A DNA stretch of 38,720 bases from a virus (taxonomy: Duplodnaviria > Heunggongvirae > Uroviricota > Caudoviricetes). The stretch is from the IMG/VR virus record IMGVR_UViG_2563366844_000005; one strand, 5' to 3'. The notes beneath the pieces are model-generated. The model did not search any database, was not told where the DNA came from, and worked only from the letters and a program-made list of their open reading frames with translations. The position numbers were made by a program, and so were the translations under genes. This document shows, one piece after another, positions 18,600 through 33,180 of the stretch; position 1 is the first letter of the stretch, and each line of letters opens with the position of its first letter.

Positions 18600-19250
18600 T
18601 TAGAAGTTCAGATTTTTCAGTGCATTCAGTGCAGAGCCCACATCCTCAGCGTCGCGCAGGGACAGTGCGCCATAGCCCCCGGCCATGAATGCTTTGGCCT
18701 GGGTACGGGAGAGTCCGACATCACGCAGGACTCTTTCGATTTTTTTCTGTTCGGGGATTTCCCCGCGGGCCAGCGCGTTCTTGACGTCGCTGATCCGCGC
18801 CTCGTCGTTAGACGGAAACGTCACCAGACTGACTTCCCAGAGGTCGATTTCTTTCAACAGAAAGGCTTCTTTCGTCCGGTCGTATTCCCAGTCCTTCAGG
18901 ACGTACCCAATAGAAAGGCCGGTTAACGAACCGGCCTTCATGTGTGCATGTGCGCGTTTTGCCAGGGGATCATCATCAATGAGCAACCGCCCCCTGACGT
19001 AAAGCCCGACATCGTCTTCCTTCATTTCGGTGTAAACACCGATGGGCTCATCCATGCGGTGCTGCCAGAGCAGCGCAGGCAACGCTTTTCTGTCACTCCA
19101 CGCCCGCAGGGAAGCAGCAAATGCCCCGGACATCACCACATCATCGTGACTGTCCTTTACACCAAAGACGGAGCCATACCCTTCAAACTCACCGGAGTCA
19201 CTGACAGATTTCAGACTCAGCGGTACATCAAGACGTTGTTTCGTCTGCAT
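18600..19250 (-). CDS. Prohead maturation protease (HK97 family)
   Basis: Position between portal and capsid genes; start taken at the ATG at 19250, which has an AAGGA SD. Confidence 0.85.
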   Translation of the reverse strand: MQTKQRLDVPLSLKSVSDSGEFEGYGSVFGVKDSHDDVVMSGAFAASLRAWSDRKALPALLWQHRMDEPIGVYTEMKEDDVGLYVRGRLLIDDDPLAKRAHAHMKAGSLTGLSIGYVLKDWEYDRTKEAFLLKEIDLWEVSLVTFPSNDEARISDVKNALARGEIPEQKKIERVLRDVGLSRTQAKAFMAGGYGALSLRDAEDVGSALNALKNLNF

Positions 19251-27817: not shown

Positions 27818-28674
27818 TATTCACACTCCCCAACCAGATTAAGAATAACCGCCGCGCCATTGTCTTTCATATATTCGCCCTTTCCGCTTGCCAAAAACCA
27901 ACGACACACCTCCACGGCTTCAGCCCGTGTCACCGGTTTGATGGTCATCAGCAATTTTTCAAGGTAGCGCTCGCGGTCATATACCGATTCGTGATGCTCA
28001 GAGTAACCAAACTCATCGCCCTGTTCTTTAGTTGCAGTGTGGCGAACACTGTAGAGCCAGTCCCAGTAAACAAACTCACGAACTACGTCTGACAATGTAT
28101 GAGGCTCTGGCAGTACATCACGATAGCCATCAACATATGCACGACGCTGATCATCAATTTCATTCATACGGATGCCGTCAATTCTGCCCGCTTTCTTCTC
28201 GGCTGCAGTCCAGCCCCAGAGATGATCGTCGATAAATTTCTGGGAAGACTTGATCACTCGCTCGGCTTCCACATCTTCGAGTGCTGCTTCATAGCTACCA
28301 AACGTAGCCCTGACTGATGCTGCTTTTTTGATATTCTCCCGGGCGATACTGATTGCCTGTGCCGGGTTATCCATGCCGATGGTACCGAAAGCAATCTGGA
28401 AAGGATCGCCACCATTCGCCAGCAGATAACGCGAATAGCGTTCCTGGGCCTCTTTTGGGGAAATTTTAATTTTCACCAGCGCAGCCTCAGCAGCATCCAG
28501 ATGTGCGGGTTCGTTCAGACGGATAACCTCCAGCACCCAAAGATAAGCATCAGTCTGCTTATGCCCGGTGATTCTCCGTTGCTCTGGCAGGGGCTTGATG
28601 TTTGCGAGGACGGAGCTGTACGCTGCCGTCGGGATGGTGAATAGTGCTTTATGTTCGTTGTTATCAGTACGCAT
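27817..28674 (-). CDS. Hypothetical protein between the replication genes and the Q-like gene
   Basis: 285 aa; translationally coupled at both ends (TAATG overlaps); no motif recognised. Confidence 0.6.
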   Translation of the reverse strand: MRTDNNEHKALFTIPTAAYSSVLANIKPLPEQRRITGHKQTDAYLWVLEVIRLNEPAHLDAAEAALVKIKISPKEAQERYSRYLLANGGDPFQIAFGTIGMDNPAQAISIARENIKKAASVRATFGSYEAALEDVEAERVIKSSQKFIDDHLWGWTAAEKKAGRIDGIRMNEIDDQRRAYVDGYRDVLPEPHTLSDVVREFVYWDWLYSVRHTATKEQGDEFGYSEHHESVYDRERYLEKLLMTIKPVTRAEAVEVCRWFLASGKGEYMKDNGAAVILNLVGECE

Positions 28675-29642
28675 TACGCAACCGCCTTTTTCTTATGGAA
28701 AACCAGCTCTCGAACCTGATCACCGTTCATGAGCATATTGTTGAAATCATCGTGATCCGGCCAGTACACGCTCACGCGCTGCAGGTCATTCTTTGCCATC
28801 AGATTGGCATGAGCACATTCGCAAGCCGCAGCCAGCCCGGTGGCGCTGTTCTCATCACGGTCGGCAAAAATAATCAGGTGCAGCACACCAGCTGGTACAC
28901 GGAACTTTTTCATAAAGCCGCTGTTAATGGTTGCCCAGGTGTTCACGTTATAAATCTGGTGCGCTGACAGCGCTGTTTCGATGCCTTCGGCGATACCCAG
29001 AGTGCTAGCGACAGGAAACATGCGGATAGCTACAGAACGAGCGTGGTCCAAATAGTTATCTTCCTGCAGGGATTTGAGGCGCTTTGCACTGCTACCAATA
29101 TCTGCTTTTTTATCACCATCAAGCAGAGTCTGGTGCAGATAGCACAACTCCCCTTTATCGTCCGTAGCAAGTGAATAAAGAGACTGAAACACACTCCCGT
29201 TGTGTCTCTGCCTGGCATTGAACCGGATCGCCTCAGCAGGAAGACTGAATATTCCACGAGAATTAAGATACGCTGCGCCGGATGTACCACGCAGTGCCTC
29301 CAGTTTTGAAAACTTGCTCAATACCCGTTTGCGTAAGCTGGTGGCGCTGCTGGTTGCCGGGATTTTAACCCGTTGGTAATCATTACCGATCAGGCGGTCT
29401 ATTTCGGTACAAATCTCGTTAAATGGCTTCGCCTGTGTCAGGGTGACAAGTTTCATACCATCGCCACTACCACATACACAGATCCACGTTCCTGCACCGT
29501 CGCGGTCATCAATTCGGAACTTGCCACGTGCACCGCATACCGGGCATTCACCCTTGAAGTGATTTTTTCCTGTTATCGGCGGCAAGCCGAAGTGCTCTAA
29601 TATTTCAGGCCAGCGGCCTTTCGCTGCAGCTGCTGTTTTCAT
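28674..29642 (-). CDS. DNA primase (zinc-binding plus Toprim domain)
   Basis: N-terminal CPVCG...CVCG zinc motif; Toprim-like acidic motifs (AEGIETALS, FADRDEN). Confidence 0.8.
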   Translation of the reverse strand: MKTAAAAKGRWPEILEHFGLPPITGKNHFKGECPVCGARGKFRIDDRDGAGTWICVCGSGDGMKLVTLTQAKPFNEICTEIDRLIGNDYQRVKIPATSSATSLRKRVLSKFSKLEALRGTSGAAYLNSRGIFSLPAEAIRFNARQRHNGSVFQSLYSLATDDKGELCYLHQTLLDGDKKADIGSSAKRLKSLQEDNYLDHARSVAIRMFPVASTLGIAEGIETALSAHQIYNVNTWATINSGFMKKFRVPAGVLHLIIFADRDENSATGLAAACECAHANLMAKNDLQRVSVYWPDHDDFNNMLMNGDQVRELVFHKKKAVA

Positions 29643-29643
29643 C

Positions 29644-31302
29644 TTACTGACTCAAACTGTTTATATTTTTCTGGAGTTGTTGCTTTGCTTGCATGATGCG
29701 CCAAGCCTCAGTGCCTATTGGCATCTCGCTTCGCTCACCTCGTTCCTGAGACAGAGGAATCGTTGCCTGCAATTTTTCTATAGTTCTCTGCGTCCGCTGA
29801 CGGCCTTTGGCAAACCGAATCAGCTTGTGTTTGATGTAGTTACTTACCTCTGGGCTTATTTCCATCGGGAAACTGCTCAACCCATCAGGCCATTCACCGA
29901 ATTTCTCCCTGAAAGTGTGAGCACACCATCCATCACTGACTGGACGCCCCAGCGAAGCACGCTGGCGCTGATAAAATTTGATCTGACTCCACCAGGACTG
30001 TTTCTCTGCCTTCGTCGACTGATGCTGATTTTTACCCAGCTTATTAAGTTTGCGGCTAGTGTCAGTATCAACGTCTTCACCTCGCAGCGGCTTGTGTCCA
30101 CATTTCGGGCAAACATAGACGCCAGCTGGCTTCATGTAGTGGCATTGAGGGCATTCATGTGGCAGTTTTTCGGCCCGTTCCTCAACTGCGCGGCGCGCAC
30201 TTTCCTCCATACCGTCAGACTTGCCGGGAAGATCGTCGTACTCGATTGAATCCGGATAACCCAGACGGTGCACGGTGCCGCTATGATCGAAGATGAGGCA
30301 GGACTCTTTACCCGGTGCGGTGCGCAGCCCACGCCCGAGCGCCTGCAACCAGCGAATTTCGCTTTTTGTTGGCCTGGCGTAGATGATGCAACGAACGTCA
30401 CTATCGAAGCCGGCCACCAGCACGCCCACACTAACGATGATTTTCGTTGCACCAGTTTCAAAGCGGTGAATGATGGTCTGGCGCTCATCTACCGGAGTGT
30501 CTGCGGTCATTACCTCAGCGTTAACACCTGCGAGGTTAAACTGGATTGTCAGGTAATTGGCGTGGGCTACGTTAACGCAGAAAGCGATGGTAGGTAGATC
30601 CCGACCATTCTCCAGCCAGTTCTGTACGATGTCGCCCACCAGCGTAGATCCGCACATGATTTCAGCCAGCTGCGTTTCGTTGTAATCCCGGCCGTACTCA
30701 AGCGAAGATGTGGTTTTAACACCTTTCAGATCCGGCTTAGTTGGCGCGTAAAATTCGTATTTACTCAGATCGCCACGCTGGATTAACTCGCCGATTGTGG
30801 TCGGCTTAATCAGTCGGTCATAGTATTTGCCCAGGAACGGGGAAAACGGAGTACCCGACAGGCCAATCACCTTTACGCCTTTGCCGCGCAGACGTTCGAT
30901 ATCCTTCAGGATGCGCTTTTTACGCAGGTGTGCTTCGTCGATAATCAGCAGATCAATATTTTCAGGAAAAACACGACGAATAAGCGTGTCGGCGCTGGCA
31001 ATCTGAATTTTCCGGTCCGGATCGTAGTTCGGGTGATCCGCCCAGATATAACCGATTTCATCCCCCGGTAATCCATACTCCACGAACCGATTAGCCGTCT
31101 GGCCGATCAGGATGGTGTACGGTGCACAGAACAGGACGCGCATACCACGGCTGACAAACCCGGCAACGATGAAGGCAGCCAAACCCGTTTTACCACTACC
31201 GGTTGGCGAATACACCATGAAGGTGTCGTTTGCCTTCCAATCACGGCGCAACATGTTTAGCGCTCGTTCCTGTGCAAAATTCGGCGTGATCGTCAGCTCC
31301 AT
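29644..31302 (-). CDS. SF2 (DEAD/DEAH-type) replicative helicase
   Basis: Walker A SPTGSGKTG, Walker B/DEAH IIDEAH, C-terminal CPQC...CPKCG zinc ribbon. Confidence 0.85.
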   Translation of the reverse strand: MELTITPNFAQERALNMLRRDWKANDTFMVYSPTGSGKTGLAAFIVAGFVSRGMRVLFCAPYTILIGQTANRFVEYGLPGDEIGYIWADHPNYDPDRKIQIASADTLIRRVFPENIDLLIIDEAHLRKKRILKDIERLRGKGVKVIGLSGTPFSPFLGKYYDRLIKPTTIGELIQRGDLSKYEFYAPTKPDLKGVKTTSSLEYGRDYNETQLAEIMCGSTLVGDIVQNWLENGRDLPTIAFCVNVAHANYLTIQFNLAGVNAEVMTADTPVDERQTIIHRFETGATKIIVSVGVLVAGFDSDVRCIIYARPTKSEIRWLQALGRGLRTAPGKESCLIFDHSGTVHRLGYPDSIEYDDLPGKSDGMEESARRAVEERAEKLPHECPQCHYMKPAGVYVCPKCGHKPLRGEDVDTDTSRKLNKLGKNQHQSTKAEKQSWWSQIKFYQRQRASLGRPVSDGWCAHTFREKFGEWPDGLSSFPMEISPEVSNYIKHKLIRFAKGRQRTQRTIEKLQATIPLSQERGERSEMPIGTEAWRIMQAKQQLQKNINSLSQ

Positions 31303-31716
31303 TGTGCTGCTCCCGTGCTGATGAGATAATAATTTCGTGATGTGGTTTTCATGGATTCCCCCTCACATGGCTGGTGGCCTCCCCAAAGGCTGCCAGCCCC
31401 CTTTCTGATTCAGCTCCTCTGAAAAATCACTCTTCCAAGAAGAACCCTTTTCGTTTCTCAAGGCCTGGGCGCTTTGTACTACCTTGCTGATACGAGCGTT
31501 TTTTTAAATTGCGCCCTTAAGACAGTGATCTACTTAACCAATGGATCTCTCCTGTTGGAAAAGACCCTATTCCTGCCCCTACACCCAATCCCCCCCTACC
31601 CCCCCTTTCCCTCTTCCCCATAAAAACGTACTACTTACCTAGTACATATGAGGAATTGGGTCAGTTGGTTGCCAACCTGAACAGGCACCTTTAAGCCTGC
31701 TTCTGTTCGGGTGCCT

Positions 31717-32025
31717 TTAAACCCGAAACAATGAGGAGCGCGATTGCGATCCAGCCAGGGGCGGCTGAGTTGTATACCCCTGTAAAGCCCTGCCCTGATT
31801 TCTCACAAACAAGCGGAGCCTTGTGTTTGCTTCGTGCCTTGCTCTGTTCTCCTTGCGGAATGAAACAGGCTCAGCGTCAAAAGTGATTTCGTATACCTCC
31901 GCATATTTCAGGGCGACCTTCCGTCTCAGTGACGGAGGCAGCCCCTGTAACTGCTGCTGAATCCACTCTTCGTCTGCCTGGCAGTACCTAGATGGCATCT
32001 CTGTCTGAACGTAATTCTGGGACAT
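31717..32025 (-). CDS. Hypothetical protein at the cII position
   Basis: 102-aa ORF with AGGTGAAGGG SD, overlapping the cro-like 3' end; the C-terminal third is low-complexity, so the real product may be shorter. Confidence 0.35.
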   Translation of the reverse strand: MSQNYVQTEMPSRYCQADEEWIQQQLQGLPPSLRRKVALKYAEVYEITFDAEPVSFRKENRARHEANTRLRLFVRNQGRALQGYTTQPPLAGSQSRSSLFRV

Positions 32026-32275
32026 ACAAGCCCTTCACCTCCCCCGTGCGCGCTAAGCTTGGATGTGGAAAAAGCTCTGGTAGGTCTGGACGAAATTCAT
32101 ACGCTTGGATCTTTCCGTCGACAGCTGCAACCAATAACGGCACAAATTCTGGTGAAATCTTGTTCTTGCAGTTCAACCAATCGCAGACTGTTGACTGGGC
32201 CTTTCCGCATCGCTTGGCTAAGGCTTGCTGACTTCCAAGAATCTCAATAGCTTTCTCTATGGCTTTATGTTTCAT
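31988..32275 (-). CDS. Cro-like HTH transcriptional regulator
   Basis: HTH segment SQQALAKRCGKAQSTVCDWLN; divergent from the S24 repressor across an operator-containing intergenic region; ATG at 32275 has an AGGAGA SD. Confidence 0.65.
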   Translation of the reverse strand: MKHKAIEKAIEILGSQQALAKRCGKAQSTVCDWLNCKNKISPEFVPLLVAAVDGKIQAYEFRPDLPELFPHPSLARTGEVKGLYVPELRSDRDAI

Positions 32276-32342
32276 AATCGCATCTCCTATTGAGCGCATA
32301 ATAGCAACAGGAAAAGCGATATTCAACGTTAAACCTAGAACA

Positions 32343-32362
32343 TTTATCGGAAAGCCGATAAA
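32343..32362. promoter_or_regulatory. Candidate operator palindrome in the cro/repressor intergenic region
   Basis: Perfect inverted repeat TTTATCGG-AAAG-CCGATAAA; CGATAAA/CCGAT half-site variants recur near the pL-like promoter. Confidence 0.5.
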
Positions 32363-32394
32363 CTAGCCAAGATAGAGAGGGGAGGAAAATCGCA

Positions 32395-33087
32395 ATGACA
32401 TTTTCAGAACGACTTGATTTAGCTATGCGCAACGCAAAATTTACGCAAGGTAGGCTGGCCAAAGAAGTGGGTATGGCTCAGTCCAGTGTTAATCAACTAC
32501 TTAACAAAGCCAACGGTTCCAGAAAAACAGTCGAAATAGCAAAAGTTTTGGGCGTTAACCCGGAATGGCTCGCATCGGGTGTTGGCCCAATGGAAATCGT
32601 GACCTCTGCAGACTCACACCAAATACGTAACATTTCTGAAGATTGGGTTACTGATTCGTATGTCGTGGATGTTTTAGACATCAGATATAGTTGCGGACCT
32701 GGTAGTTATAACTCTGATTTTCCTGACATTGTCAGATCTATAGCGATAGAACCAGGATACGCATCAAGAGTTTTTGGCGGCAGACCAGCATCAGCAATCA
32801 AAGCAATAAACGCCCACGGCGACAGTATGAAAGGCACAATAGACCCTGAAGACTTGGTATTTGTAGATGTATCAGTTCGCACATTTAATGGTGATGGTAT
32901 ATACGCCTTTACATACTCTGGAACATCGCACATCAAAAGACTTCAAAAAATCAAAGATACTCTAACGGTGATATCTGACAACCCAGCTTACAAGGATTGG
33001 GCTATCGAACCTGAAGACTTCGAACAACTTCACATTGACGGAAAAGTAATTGTCAGTTGGCCCATGACACTACACCGTTTTGCATAA
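32395..33087 (+). CDS. CI-type prophage repressor (N-terminal HTH, C-terminal S24 LexA-like peptidase)
   Basis: HTH FTQGRLAKEVGMAQSSVNQL; C-terminal domain with GDSM (Ser nucleophile) and downstream Lys; GAGGGGAGG SD. Confidence 0.9.
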   Translation: MTFSERLDLAMRNAKFTQGRLAKEVGMAQSSVNQLLNKANGSRKTVEIAKVLGVNPEWLASGVGPMEIVTSADSHQIRNISEDWVTDSYVVDVLDIRYSCGPGSYNSDFPDIVRSIAIEPGYASRVFGGRPASAIKAINAHGDSMKGTIDPEDLVFVDVSVRTFNGDGIYAFTYSGTSHIKRLQKIKDTLTVISDNPAYKDWAIEPEDFEQLHIDGKVIVSWPMTLHRFA

Positions 33088-33105: not shown

Positions 33106-33132
33106 GCCCACTCTTAAGTGGGCTTTTTTTTT
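33106..33132 (+). terminator. Intrinsic terminator after the repressor gene
   Basis: GCCCACT-CTTA-AGTGGGC followed by nine T. Confidence 0.7.
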
Positions 33133-33151
33133 GGAAAAATCGATAAACCGA

Positions 33152-33180
33152 TTGACAGGCAAAATCGGTAAACCTATTAT
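33152..33180 (+). promoter_or_regulatory. Candidate early-left (pL-like) sigma-70 promoter with flanking operator half-sites
   Basis: -35 TTGACA, 17-bp spacer, -10 TATTAT; CGATAAACCGAT immediately upstream and AAATCGGTAAA inside the spacer. Confidence 0.55.

Follow-up and report, generated by a model that had tools for sequence, protein, structure and literature searches.

A conserved G-run pair in the non-coding gap of an Eru1-type phage replication unit: a candidate origin-proximal element

Introduction

In the ColE1/pMB1 plasmids (through RNA II) and at oriF and oriG of phage T4, RNA made from a promoter further upstream remains paired with the DNA of the origin, and replication is coupled to transcription. 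Masukata and Tomizawa reportedly found in 1990 that the ColE1 hybrid forms through interaction between a G-rich RNA and its C-rich template. Here we analyse a non-coding gap, positions 31303-31716 of the virus record IMGVR_UViG_2563366844_000005, whose full stretch of 38,720 nt we call the window, and a pair of G runs within this gap that may serve as an origin-proximal element of an Eru1-type replication unit. The window corresponds to a lambdoid prophage whose late genes are HK97-like.

At the second of the conserved sequence blocks of mitochondria (CSB II, or CSB-2), transcription is ended and the primer for heavy-strand (H-strand) synthesis is supplied. The vertebrate consensus reads 5'-AAACCCCCCTTACCCCCC-3' in geckos (PMC6295329) and C8TTAC8 in frog (PMC4395372), heterogeneity of run length modulates the effect of CSB II (PMC5027508), and a helicase has been postulated to release the H-strand primer or to resolve the hybrid (PMC3488243; PMC4176368). 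RNA-based prophage origins are documented in mycobacteriophages (PMC7157519).

The Eru1 unit, consisting of a superfamily 2 (SF2) helicase and a Toprim protein, was described by Llarena et al. (PMC8044961, PMC8951638), and replication of the Eru phages is stated to be uncharacterised (PMC8951638, PMC8044961). As in our window, the Eru1 unit of Stx2a phage TL-2011c has a DEAD/DEAH SF2 helicase and a Toprim primase downstream of CI/Cro (PMC8044961). The published description, however, is confined to proteins, and mentions neither the p852 homolog nor the G-run element nor an origin.

Results

The gap belongs to an Eru1-type replication unit

The gap and its surroundings in the window are as follows.

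32395-33087, plus strand: CI-type S24 repressor gene
32326 to 32298, minus strand: PR-like promoter (TTGAAT-17-TATTAT with TG), upstream of the Cro/YdaS-like gene
about 31988-32326, minus strand: Cro/YdaS-like gene
31717-32025, minus strand: p852 (phrog_852), 102 aa, which always precedes the G-run element
31303-31716: non-coding gap between p852 and the helicase gene
31576-31619, minus (helicase-sense) strand: purine-rich G tract, 68% G and 89% purine, with the plus strand as C-rich template
31590-31605, minus strand: core, a CSB II-like G-run pair G7-TA-G7 (C7-TA-C7 on the plus strand)
29644-31302, minus strand: SF2 helicase gene (ResIII/DEAD/Helicase_C)
28674-29642, minus strand: Toprim/zinc-ribbon primase gene

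The primase gene is followed by a gene for a 285-aa protein without assigned function and then by the Q antiterminator gene. A first-pass annotation had described the transcribed strand of the gap as free of open reading frames (ORFs) of 60 aa or more, which we found to hold for both strands; the longest ORFs are of 32 and 34 aa on the minus strand and of 33-49 aa on the plus strand.

The helicase of the window is 67% identical to Eru1A of TL-2011c. Among relatives, p852, helicase and primase stay linked while CI and Cro are swapped, from which it follows that the element belongs to the replication unit and not to the immunity region. We conclude from these gene orders that the gap is part of an Eru1-type replication unit composed of p852, a non-coding element, the SF2 helicase and the Toprim primase. 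TL-2011c itself carries an unannotated 97-aa p852 homolog between cro and gp29 (L234:1626-1919; NC_019442.1, ~18662-18955), and the order there is p852 homolog, GGGGGTAAGGGGG and GGTACATAGGTTAGGTAGATC, gp29 and helicase. In Providencia phage PSTCR3 (helicase 69% identical), p852 is followed by GGGGAAGAGGGGAAAA...GGGGGGTAAGGGGGG, and in Pseudoalteromonas phage HS5 (helicase 56%) no such tract was found. The Eru1 unit as published therefore lacks one conserved gene, p852, and the non-coding element that follows it.

Circular records of related phages, of ~40 kb, contain no other replicon. Several Enterobacter and Klebsiella "non-mobilizable plasmids" of ~37-43 kb (PLSDB NZ_CP083847.1, NZ_CP076549.1, NZ_AP024758.1 and others) also carry the element. 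One of them, NZ_CP083847.1 (L113), was inspected and belongs to this phage family: the circular record is a whole phage genome that encodes an integrase and a complete virion gene set, and it contains no plasmid replicon.

A pair of G runs is the conserved feature of the gap

Conservation in relatives with the same replication genes had been proposed as a check on the tract, and the tract is kept in close and distant relatives alike. A G-rich tract together with the motif CTTTTCCAACAG was found upstream of the helicase gene, 150-650 nt from its start, in nearly all of 110 loci with a helicase identity of at least 73%. Only two loci, L060 and L063, lack an exact CTTTTCCAACAG; they have a one-base variant and a shorter G tract ~760 nt upstream. 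The G runs lie on the helicase-sense strand in every case, and the pair is retained at the lower helicase identities of PSTCR3 (69%) and TL-2011c (67%). Phages Fostie, YP3 and ENT39118 are 86-90% identical to the window over the entire gap, whereas Klebsiella phages match in the core region 31530-31621 alone and differ in the flanks. Against a Klebsiella-type relative, identity is 75% in the C tract and 71% in the adjacent motif, compared with 61% in p852 and 64% in the 5' part of the helicase gene. In Fels-1 and phi467 the gap is interrupted by a 122-aa gene, and the tract differs yet is still polypurine.

The common denominator of 51 unique variants is two long G runs with 1-3 A/T between them in a purine-rich context. 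The commonest form is G6-TAA-G6, which as a 15-mer reads GGGGGGTAAGGGGGG; the others are G7-TA-G7 (the window), G6-TT(T)-G6, G6-AAA-G6, G6-A-G8, G5-AAA-G5 and G4-A-G5. Relatives also show G5-TAA-G5. Run lengths thus range from 4 to 8 and spacers from 1 to 3 nt, both being variable and the spacers consisting of A/T only. The pattern of at least five Gs, 1-3 nt and at least four Gs fits 76 of 99 loci, the remainder being of the Fels-1 type with G4-A-G5. Because both run and spacer lengths vary, a structural role fits these data and a protein site of fixed geometry is disfavoured. A scan of the collection with a pattern of 16 specified bases was too unspecific to be of use, giving two true matches (Yersinia massiliensis and Pseudescherichia) among the 120 listed.

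The G-quadruplex (G4) potential that the first-pass annotation assigned to the minus strand was borne out in silico. The C-rich string it had quoted for 31566-31620 is present, with narrower limits (31576-31619), and no (G3+N1-7)x4 motif occurs on either strand of the window outside the minus-strand stretch from 31619 to 31576. One 55-nt stretch contains 35 C, compared with a maximum of 32 in 300 shuffles, and the G-free run of 52 nt on the C-rich strand (31576-31627) is the longest of the window, the runner-up being 35 nt. When G4 energies were included, ViennaRNA predicted a G4 for every variant, of three layers for the type of the window and for the Klebsiella and Providencia types and of two layers for all others; with these energies off, the tract has no secondary structure at all. 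The canonical four-run motif, however, is not family-wide: it occurs in the window and in 69 of the 99 loci, and is absent from the Fels-1 type, L011/L022, L032, L060 and L157. In TL-2011c, which lies outside the 99 loci, only a two-layer G4 is predicted. We conclude from the variant comparison that it is the G-run pair, and not the canonical four-run G4, that is conserved.

An early rightward transcript from the PR-like promoter most likely crosses the gap, because this promoter lies upstream and a scan of the minus strand from there to the helicase gene found no intrinsic terminator. Within the gap, no convincing sigma-70 promoter was found by eye or with a scanner, and a consensus scan of 31000-32600, which is a weak test, gave no promoter-like site on the plus strand. 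Likely CI/Cro operators at PR/PRM (TTATCGG-AAAG-CCGATAA) lie in 32346-32365. Operator-related ATCGATAAACCGAT and AATCGGTAAACC sites accompany a PL-like promoter (TTGACA-17-TATTAT...) in 33133-33175, which comes after a strong terminator 3' of cI (33106-33135).

Resemblance to mitochondrial CSB II and to the ColE1 origin

In a literal text search of the literature, the complement of the commonest 15-mer, CCCCCCTTACCCCCC, was found to be the vertebrate mitochondrial CSB-2 consensus; most relatives have C6TTAC6 and the window has C7TAC7. The likeness extends to the setting. The G runs have the same orientation to an upstream promoter as in CSB II, and the window encodes an SF2 helicase and a primase directly downstream. 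Two features expected of a CSB II-type element are present, namely two runs of at least five Gs separated by 1-3 nt (G7-TA-G7) and, as far as sequence can tell, the location of these runs on the non-template strand downstream of a promoter (the sense strand of cro, p852 and the helicase gene). There are also differences: transcription here would be by the multisubunit RNA polymerase of the host and not by a T7-like single-subunit enzyme, and the prophage has no equivalents of CSB I or CSB III.

Like ColE1, the window would pair a G-rich RNA segment (68% G in the tract) with a C-rich template (the 35 C in 55 nt). In contrast to ColE1, no antisense regulator of the RNA I type was found, by the consensus promoter scan of 31000-32600 and Rfam, which together are a weak test; the phage has its own SF2 helicase and primase in place of Pol I plus PriA; and no RNase H processing site is known here.

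The same 15-mer occurs in other phage replication modules

An exact scan of viral contigs for GGGGGGTAAGGGGGG gave at least 120 loci, and the figures that follow are for the 120 listed. The family of the window accounts for 23 of them. All 23 have the motif 5' of the helicase gene and on its strand, and in 22 a p852 homolog was detected across the motif from the helicase. Nor are the remaining sites placed at random. Those within ORFs are mostly on the strand opposite to the ORF (46, as against 13 on the same strand), a bias that is stronger for ORFs of at least 150 aa (35 against 5). The initiator or replisome-organizer domains found in the motif-bearing ORFs are HTH_36 (eight), DUF1376 (two), DnaD_N (two), DUF6291 (two) and Lin1244_N (one), and the gene that follows encodes a DnaB helicase (six), a DnaC/IstB-like protein (two) or a Toprim/Prim-Pol protein. 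One motif-bearing ORF is 99% identical to a "replication protein" region of Pseudomonas aeruginosa phages, and its N-terminal half is 68% identical to "replication protein O" of E. coli phages.

The layout of these O-type modules, read on the G strand, is C5-6 TT G6 TAA G6, a spacer of 30-40 nt rich in AT/CT, and 3-4 iterons, for example four copies of GCGTGAC at 10-bp spacing. By its sequence organisation, this arrangement is a lambda-like origin inside the initiator gene; origins of the lambda type, embedded in the O gene, combine iterons with an AT-rich region and a GC-rich palindrome. The family of the window shares with it the 15-mer, which in O-type genes of Pseudomonas and other phages stands beside iterons. 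The window differs in that its element is intergenic, without iterons, without the C-run partner (0 of 23 loci) and opposite in orientation to the replication genes.

To the G runs in the initiator genes corresponds the peptide PPLPPKGG, and a fully degenerate nucleotide pattern for it matched 99 sites across the entire collection. Depending on the synonymous third position, 64-79 of these sites have C there; in 54 the Leu codon has A as its last base, and an exact 23-mer, CCCCCCTTACCCCCCAAGGGGGG, makes up 24 of the 99. Since the synonymous positions are locked to C although the proteins share only 14-35% identity, selection appears to act on the nucleotide sequence beyond the peptide.

Loci of the O-type or replisome-organizer kind, from unrelated phages, lie in L237-L355 and L356-L447 (e.g. 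L279, L344, L305, L283, L261 and L267). In the low-GC contigs L237, L243, L250, L294, L298 and L336, G6TAAG6 comes directly after a near-consensus promoter (TTGACA-17-CATAAA), where the motif would sit at the 5' end of the transcript.

A possible origin-proximal element

The most economical reading of these sequence patterns is that the G-run pair would be a structure-dependent, origin-associated element. As to how it may work, we tentatively favour the idea that early transcription leaves a G-rich R-loop or hybrid G4 at an origin-proximal element and that the adjacent helicase and primase make use of it. The gap would then be the cis-acting non-coding part of a unit made up of p852, the element, an optional small nuclease-like gene, the SF2 helicase and the Toprim primase, with the G runs in the non-template strand of an early rightward operon under CI control. 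Once the early promoter fires, the newly made G-rich RNA would not come away cleanly from the DNA and would persist as an rG:dC R-loop, as a hybrid G4 with the displaced G-rich DNA strand, or as both. The opened duplex would supply an RNA 3' end or a loading site, and from this the phage helicase and primase, encoded just downstream, could start replication. Replication would in this way be tied to derepression, comparable to the transcriptional activation of ori-lambda. Transcription of the element, formation of the R-loop or G4, priming or loading at this place, and the identity of the site as an origin are all steps that we infer.

The first-pass annotation had likewise considered a replication origin. 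What speaks for one is that the element travels with the helicase-primase unit and that the 15-mer is associated with origins elsewhere. The usual marks of an origin, in contrast, are missing, and together with several other observations this weighs against the model. A search of 31280-31780 found no iterons (at least three direct repeats) and only two-copy repeats. There is no DnaA-box cluster, the gap holding one box with one mismatch and no enrichment. No AT-rich unwinding region of 30-40 bp is present, the longest AT stretch being ~13 bp and the lowest GC content over 60 nt being 0.38. The cumulative GC skew turns at the divergent CI/Cro promoters and not at the element, which is uninformative. 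G density falls to ~25% directly past the tract, from which no extended zone of R-loop elongation would be predicted; by QmRLFS-style rules, an initiation zone is present and the G-rich elongation zone is absent, and we rejected a long R-loop of this kind. The 15-mer is low in complexity, and its identity to CSB-2 may for this reason be convergent; the 15-mer scan, moreover, covers the 120 loci listed and has no chance expectation to set them against. In the O-type initiator genes, finally, the C-rich strand is the sense strand, opposite to the window, and because of this inversion no single mechanism that depends on the orientation of transcription covers both contexts.

Tandem hairpins and a possible role in the early mRNA

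Two hairpins lie at the 3' end of p852.

31706-31727, minus strand: hairpin 1, 7-bp stem, loop UUAAAGGC
31680-31701, minus strand: hairpin 2, 7-bp stem, loop UUAAAGGU

The stop codon of p852 (31717-31719) falls in the loop of hairpin 1. A single 7-bp inverted repeat had been reported here, and AGGCACC (31683-31689) and GGTGCCT (31710-31716) do exist in the window; the repeat is, however, better read, from the sequences of the variants, as a by-product of two separate tandem hairpins that share a conserved loop. Relatives have one or two hairpins directly 3' of the p852 stop, with stems of 5-8 bp and a loop of 8 nt, which is UUAAAGGU in 28 of 35 unique variants. Across these 35, the stems covary at several positions (e.g. 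T-A/C-G and G-C/A-T/T-A/C-G) and comprise 206 Watson-Crick pairs. On the helicase-sense strand there are, in addition, 20 G-U pairs, as against 4 A-C pairs, which on the opposite strand would be G-U. The excess of G-U over A-C indicates that the hairpins are read on the sense strand, either as RNA or as a displaced DNA strand.

Two sequence features mark p852, namely a conserved helix rich in Arg, FRKENRARHEANTRLRLFVRNQGR, and a C-terminal QGYT-x-PPLAG that is invariant. We found 477 homologs, all from Enterobacterales, and the 120 listed are hypothetical or unnamed. Sequence and profile searches of Pfam, NCBIfam and PDB found nothing, and the AlphaFold model has three helices with a predicted local distance difference test (pLDDT) score of 60, too weak for a fold search.

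These features raise the possibility, which we give less weight than the replication model, that the element acts as RNA in the early rightward mRNA and sets the expression of helicase, primase and Q rather than the start of replication. The UUAAAGGU loops could be protein sites, perhaps for p852, with a role like that of N and boxB or in processing or stability, and the G tract could cause RNA polymerase to pause, keep Rho from loading along 414 nt that are not translated, or serve as a binding site for ribosomes or a CsrA-like factor. The covarying stems, the fixed loop and the G-U bias fit such a leader, as do the position of the hairpins right at the p852 stop codon and the Arg-rich helix of p852. 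Rho is disfavoured by the composition of the sense RNA across the gap, rich in G and poor in C, and the fold of this RNA is more stable than that of shuffled sequences (z = -3.96). Eru1 phages are without an N homolog (PMC8044961), and none of the N family was found among the window proteins. The arrangement recalls lambda nutR, an invariant-loop hairpin with a covarying stem in the early rightward transcript, beside a gene for a small Arg-rich protein, but the loop is of 8 nt and not 5, the copies are in tandem, a boxA-like CGCTCCTCA is not conserved among variants and there is no leftward partner site. No further copy of the hairpin was found in the leftward operon, elsewhere in the window or in the complete related phage genome L113, and a nutL/nutR pair was rejected for this reason. 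The UUAAAGGU hairpins are also absent from TL-2011c and PSTCR3, although p852 and the G runs are present in both. A distance between core and helicase start that varies from ~150 to 760 nt, with genes inserted, speaks against control of the helicase at the level of translation. A globally structured RNA was rejected as well, the RNAalifold consensus of 21 variants being weak (-7.65 kcal/mol), and a search of the region against Rfam 15 gave nothing at gathering score (best E-values 1.3-2.2, eukaryotic families). Moreover, sense-strand hairpins would form equally well in the DNA strand displaced by an R-loop, and a leader leaves unexplained why the same 15-mer is found at iteron origins elsewhere.

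Conserved flanks and cassette turnover around the tract

The sequences on both sides of the G tract contain the following features.

31628-31645, p852 side of the G tract: GTAC-N10-GTAC palindrome, trailed on the minus strand by a U5 run in the type of the window
31527-31573, minus strand: best-conserved flank, CTTTTCCAACAG..CAT-N-GGTTA(A/G)GTAG(A/G)T
31557-31573, minus strand: small GGAA/UUCC hairpin within the conserved flank
31527 and 31544: GATC sites within the conserved flank
31499-31505, minus strand: A7 run (T7 on the plus strand), where A-richness is moderately conserved
31476-31493, helicase side: second, imperfect GTAC palindrome, 72% identical to 31628-31645
31401-31475, minus strand: spacer resembling both ends of an STM0899/gp29-like gene (..CTGGAAGAG.. 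and ..GAGCTGAATCAGAAAGG)
31369-31398, minus strand: stable leader hairpin GGCUGGCAGCC-UUUGGGGA-GGCCACCAGCC, just upstream of the Shine-Dalgarno sequence of the next item
31293-31352, minus strand: candidate upstream ORF (uORF) of 19 codons, MKTTSRNYYLISTGAAQWS, ending in a stop codon, with a strong Shine-Dalgarno sequence, GAGGGGGA

The block downstream of the tract reads GGAA..UUCC / TTTTCCAA / CAT-N-GGTTA(A/G)GTAG(A/G)T. Within 120 nt of the G runs, each of the 63 unique variants has one or more GATC and one or more GTAC sites, and GATC density near the runs is ~4 times that of the window. In L060 and L063, TAGACGTC repeats stand in place of both GTAC palindromes and the G tract is cut to G5-AAA-G5. 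Their p852, helicase, primase and 285-aa protein nevertheless remain 93-99% identical; no protein of the module thus covaries with the palindromes, and we rejected these as specificity sites of a module protein. They were rejected also as additional CI/Cro operators, those of this phage being TTATCGG-N4-CCGATAA.

The stop codon of the uORF overlaps the helicase start (ATGGAGCTGA). The E. coli, Salmonella and Cronobacter types conserve the nucleotide sequence of both the uORF and the leader hairpin, the Klebsiella type lacks them, and the uORF of phage YP3 has an earlier stop. From its sequence, the window seems to keep just the two joined ends of a deleted STM0899/gp29-like gene, which is intact in Fels-1, phi467, L033 and TL-2011c. 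Fels-1 STM0899 (L003:2661-3029) and TL-2011c gp29 (L234:2127-2504) are proteins of 122-125 aa that are 37% identical and encoded between the element and the helicase gene; they give a weak PD-(D/E)xK match (REase_MTES_1575, E = 0.037). L060 and L063 have, again between element and helicase and ~100-600 nt upstream of the helicase start, an ORF resembling an HNH homing endonuclease, with the motif NHKDGNKLNNHASNLEW (by eye); a similar E. coli locus is a NUMOD4 domain protein in RefSeq.

Such turnover suggests another explanation, that the tract is a structure-prone recombination junction without a dedicated function, for instance a homopurine/homopyrimidine mirror repeat, able to form H-DNA or a G4, that promotes or marks module exchange, or else the relic of an ancestral origin. 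The tract does lie at the boundary of cassettes that come and go (the STM0899-like gene, the HNH/NUMOD4 endonuclease and the leader with its uORF), the element is an island of similarity between more diverged flanks in Klebsiella phages, and run lengths differ between near-identical prophages, consistent with slippage. We nevertheless consider this explanation unlikely. Strand and position relative to p852 and the helicase are fixed in hosts that range from Escherichia to Providencia and at helicase identities as low as 67%, and the tract is better conserved than the adjoining coding DNA, whereas a neutral relic made of mutable homopolymers would be expected to decay.

Alternatives on the C-rich strand and other rejected candidates

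A Rho-loading (rut) site in plus-strand RNA, at which antisense transcription arriving from the helicase/Q side would be stopped short of the immunity region and of a collision with the early operon, is improbable in our view. The 78 nt from 31564 contain 51% C and 3% G, the strongest rut-like composition of the window, with an extreme C-G asymmetry (0.487, against 0.385 at the 99.9th percentile). Just upstream on the plus strand there is a terminator-like feature of a hairpin plus T7, which by eye shows one compensatory change between variants. Set against this, the plus strand has no promoter that was found to feed the site, C-richness is the necessary mirror of the G tract and may be a by-product, and a rut site explains neither the precision of the G-run pair nor its A/T-only spacer nor its occurrence inside translated initiator genes.

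That a small protein is encoded across the tract is hardly credible: the window does have a Gly-rich minus-strand ORF of 34 aa (31621 to 31517) and a Pro-rich plus-strand ORF of 33-50 aa (from 31541), but among variants their lengths are anywhere between 7 and 34 aa for the first and between 14 and 80 aa for the second, as single-base differences in the homopolymer runs shift their frames. With no ORF across the tract conserved, the possibility of a small gene raised at the outset falls away, and by this comparison the tract is non-coding. "Hypothetical protein" coding sequences are annotated on the C-rich strand in phage Fostie (L001:3120-3408) and Klebsiella phage ST512-KPC3phi13.5 (L002:3012-3398); the tract-overlapping annotations of Fostie and the Klebsiella phages are probably spurious, because their frames break when the C run differs by one base.

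Two further sets of candidates were discarded. CA-rich stretches had raised the idea of an anti-small-RNA of the AgvB/AsxR type. Those RNAs are encoded beside moron genes after Q/PR' in the late region and have a conserved 3' region of ~42 nt with a terminator (PMC4104026), whereas the element lies in the early region and has no terminator. RfaH ops, sigma-54, IHF and CsrA motifs were compared by eye and were unconvincing.

Discussion

A broader proposition, which we regard as doubtful, is that G6-TAA-G6 / C6-TTA-C6, hitherto undescribed in this role, is a signal for origins that is widespread among tailed phages, serves two or more replication systems unrelated to each other, and is the same element as mitochondrial CSB II. 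The two systems would be the Eru1-type units, in which the signal is intergenic, and the units of an O-type initiator with DnaB, in which it lies inside the initiator gene beside iterons. If this were true, priming at a G-run pair in mitochondria would either have been inherited from a phage-like ancestry of the mitochondrial replisome or be convergent. A counterpart of CSB II in a bacterial virus would also place the model of hybrid-G4 or R-loop priming in a tractable genetic system, with the helicase encoded next door.

In the outbreak strains O103:H25 (Norwegian) and O104:H4 (European), the Stx2a phages are driven by Eru1-type units and are reported to form less stable lysogens (PMC8044961). 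The G-run pair provides a defined 16-bp target, 31590-31605 in the window and GGGGGTAAGGGGG in TL-2011c, for questions about the origin and its coupling to derepression. Through this target, the way in which derepression is coupled to replication, and to amplification of the toxin gene, in Eru1 phages may become approachable.

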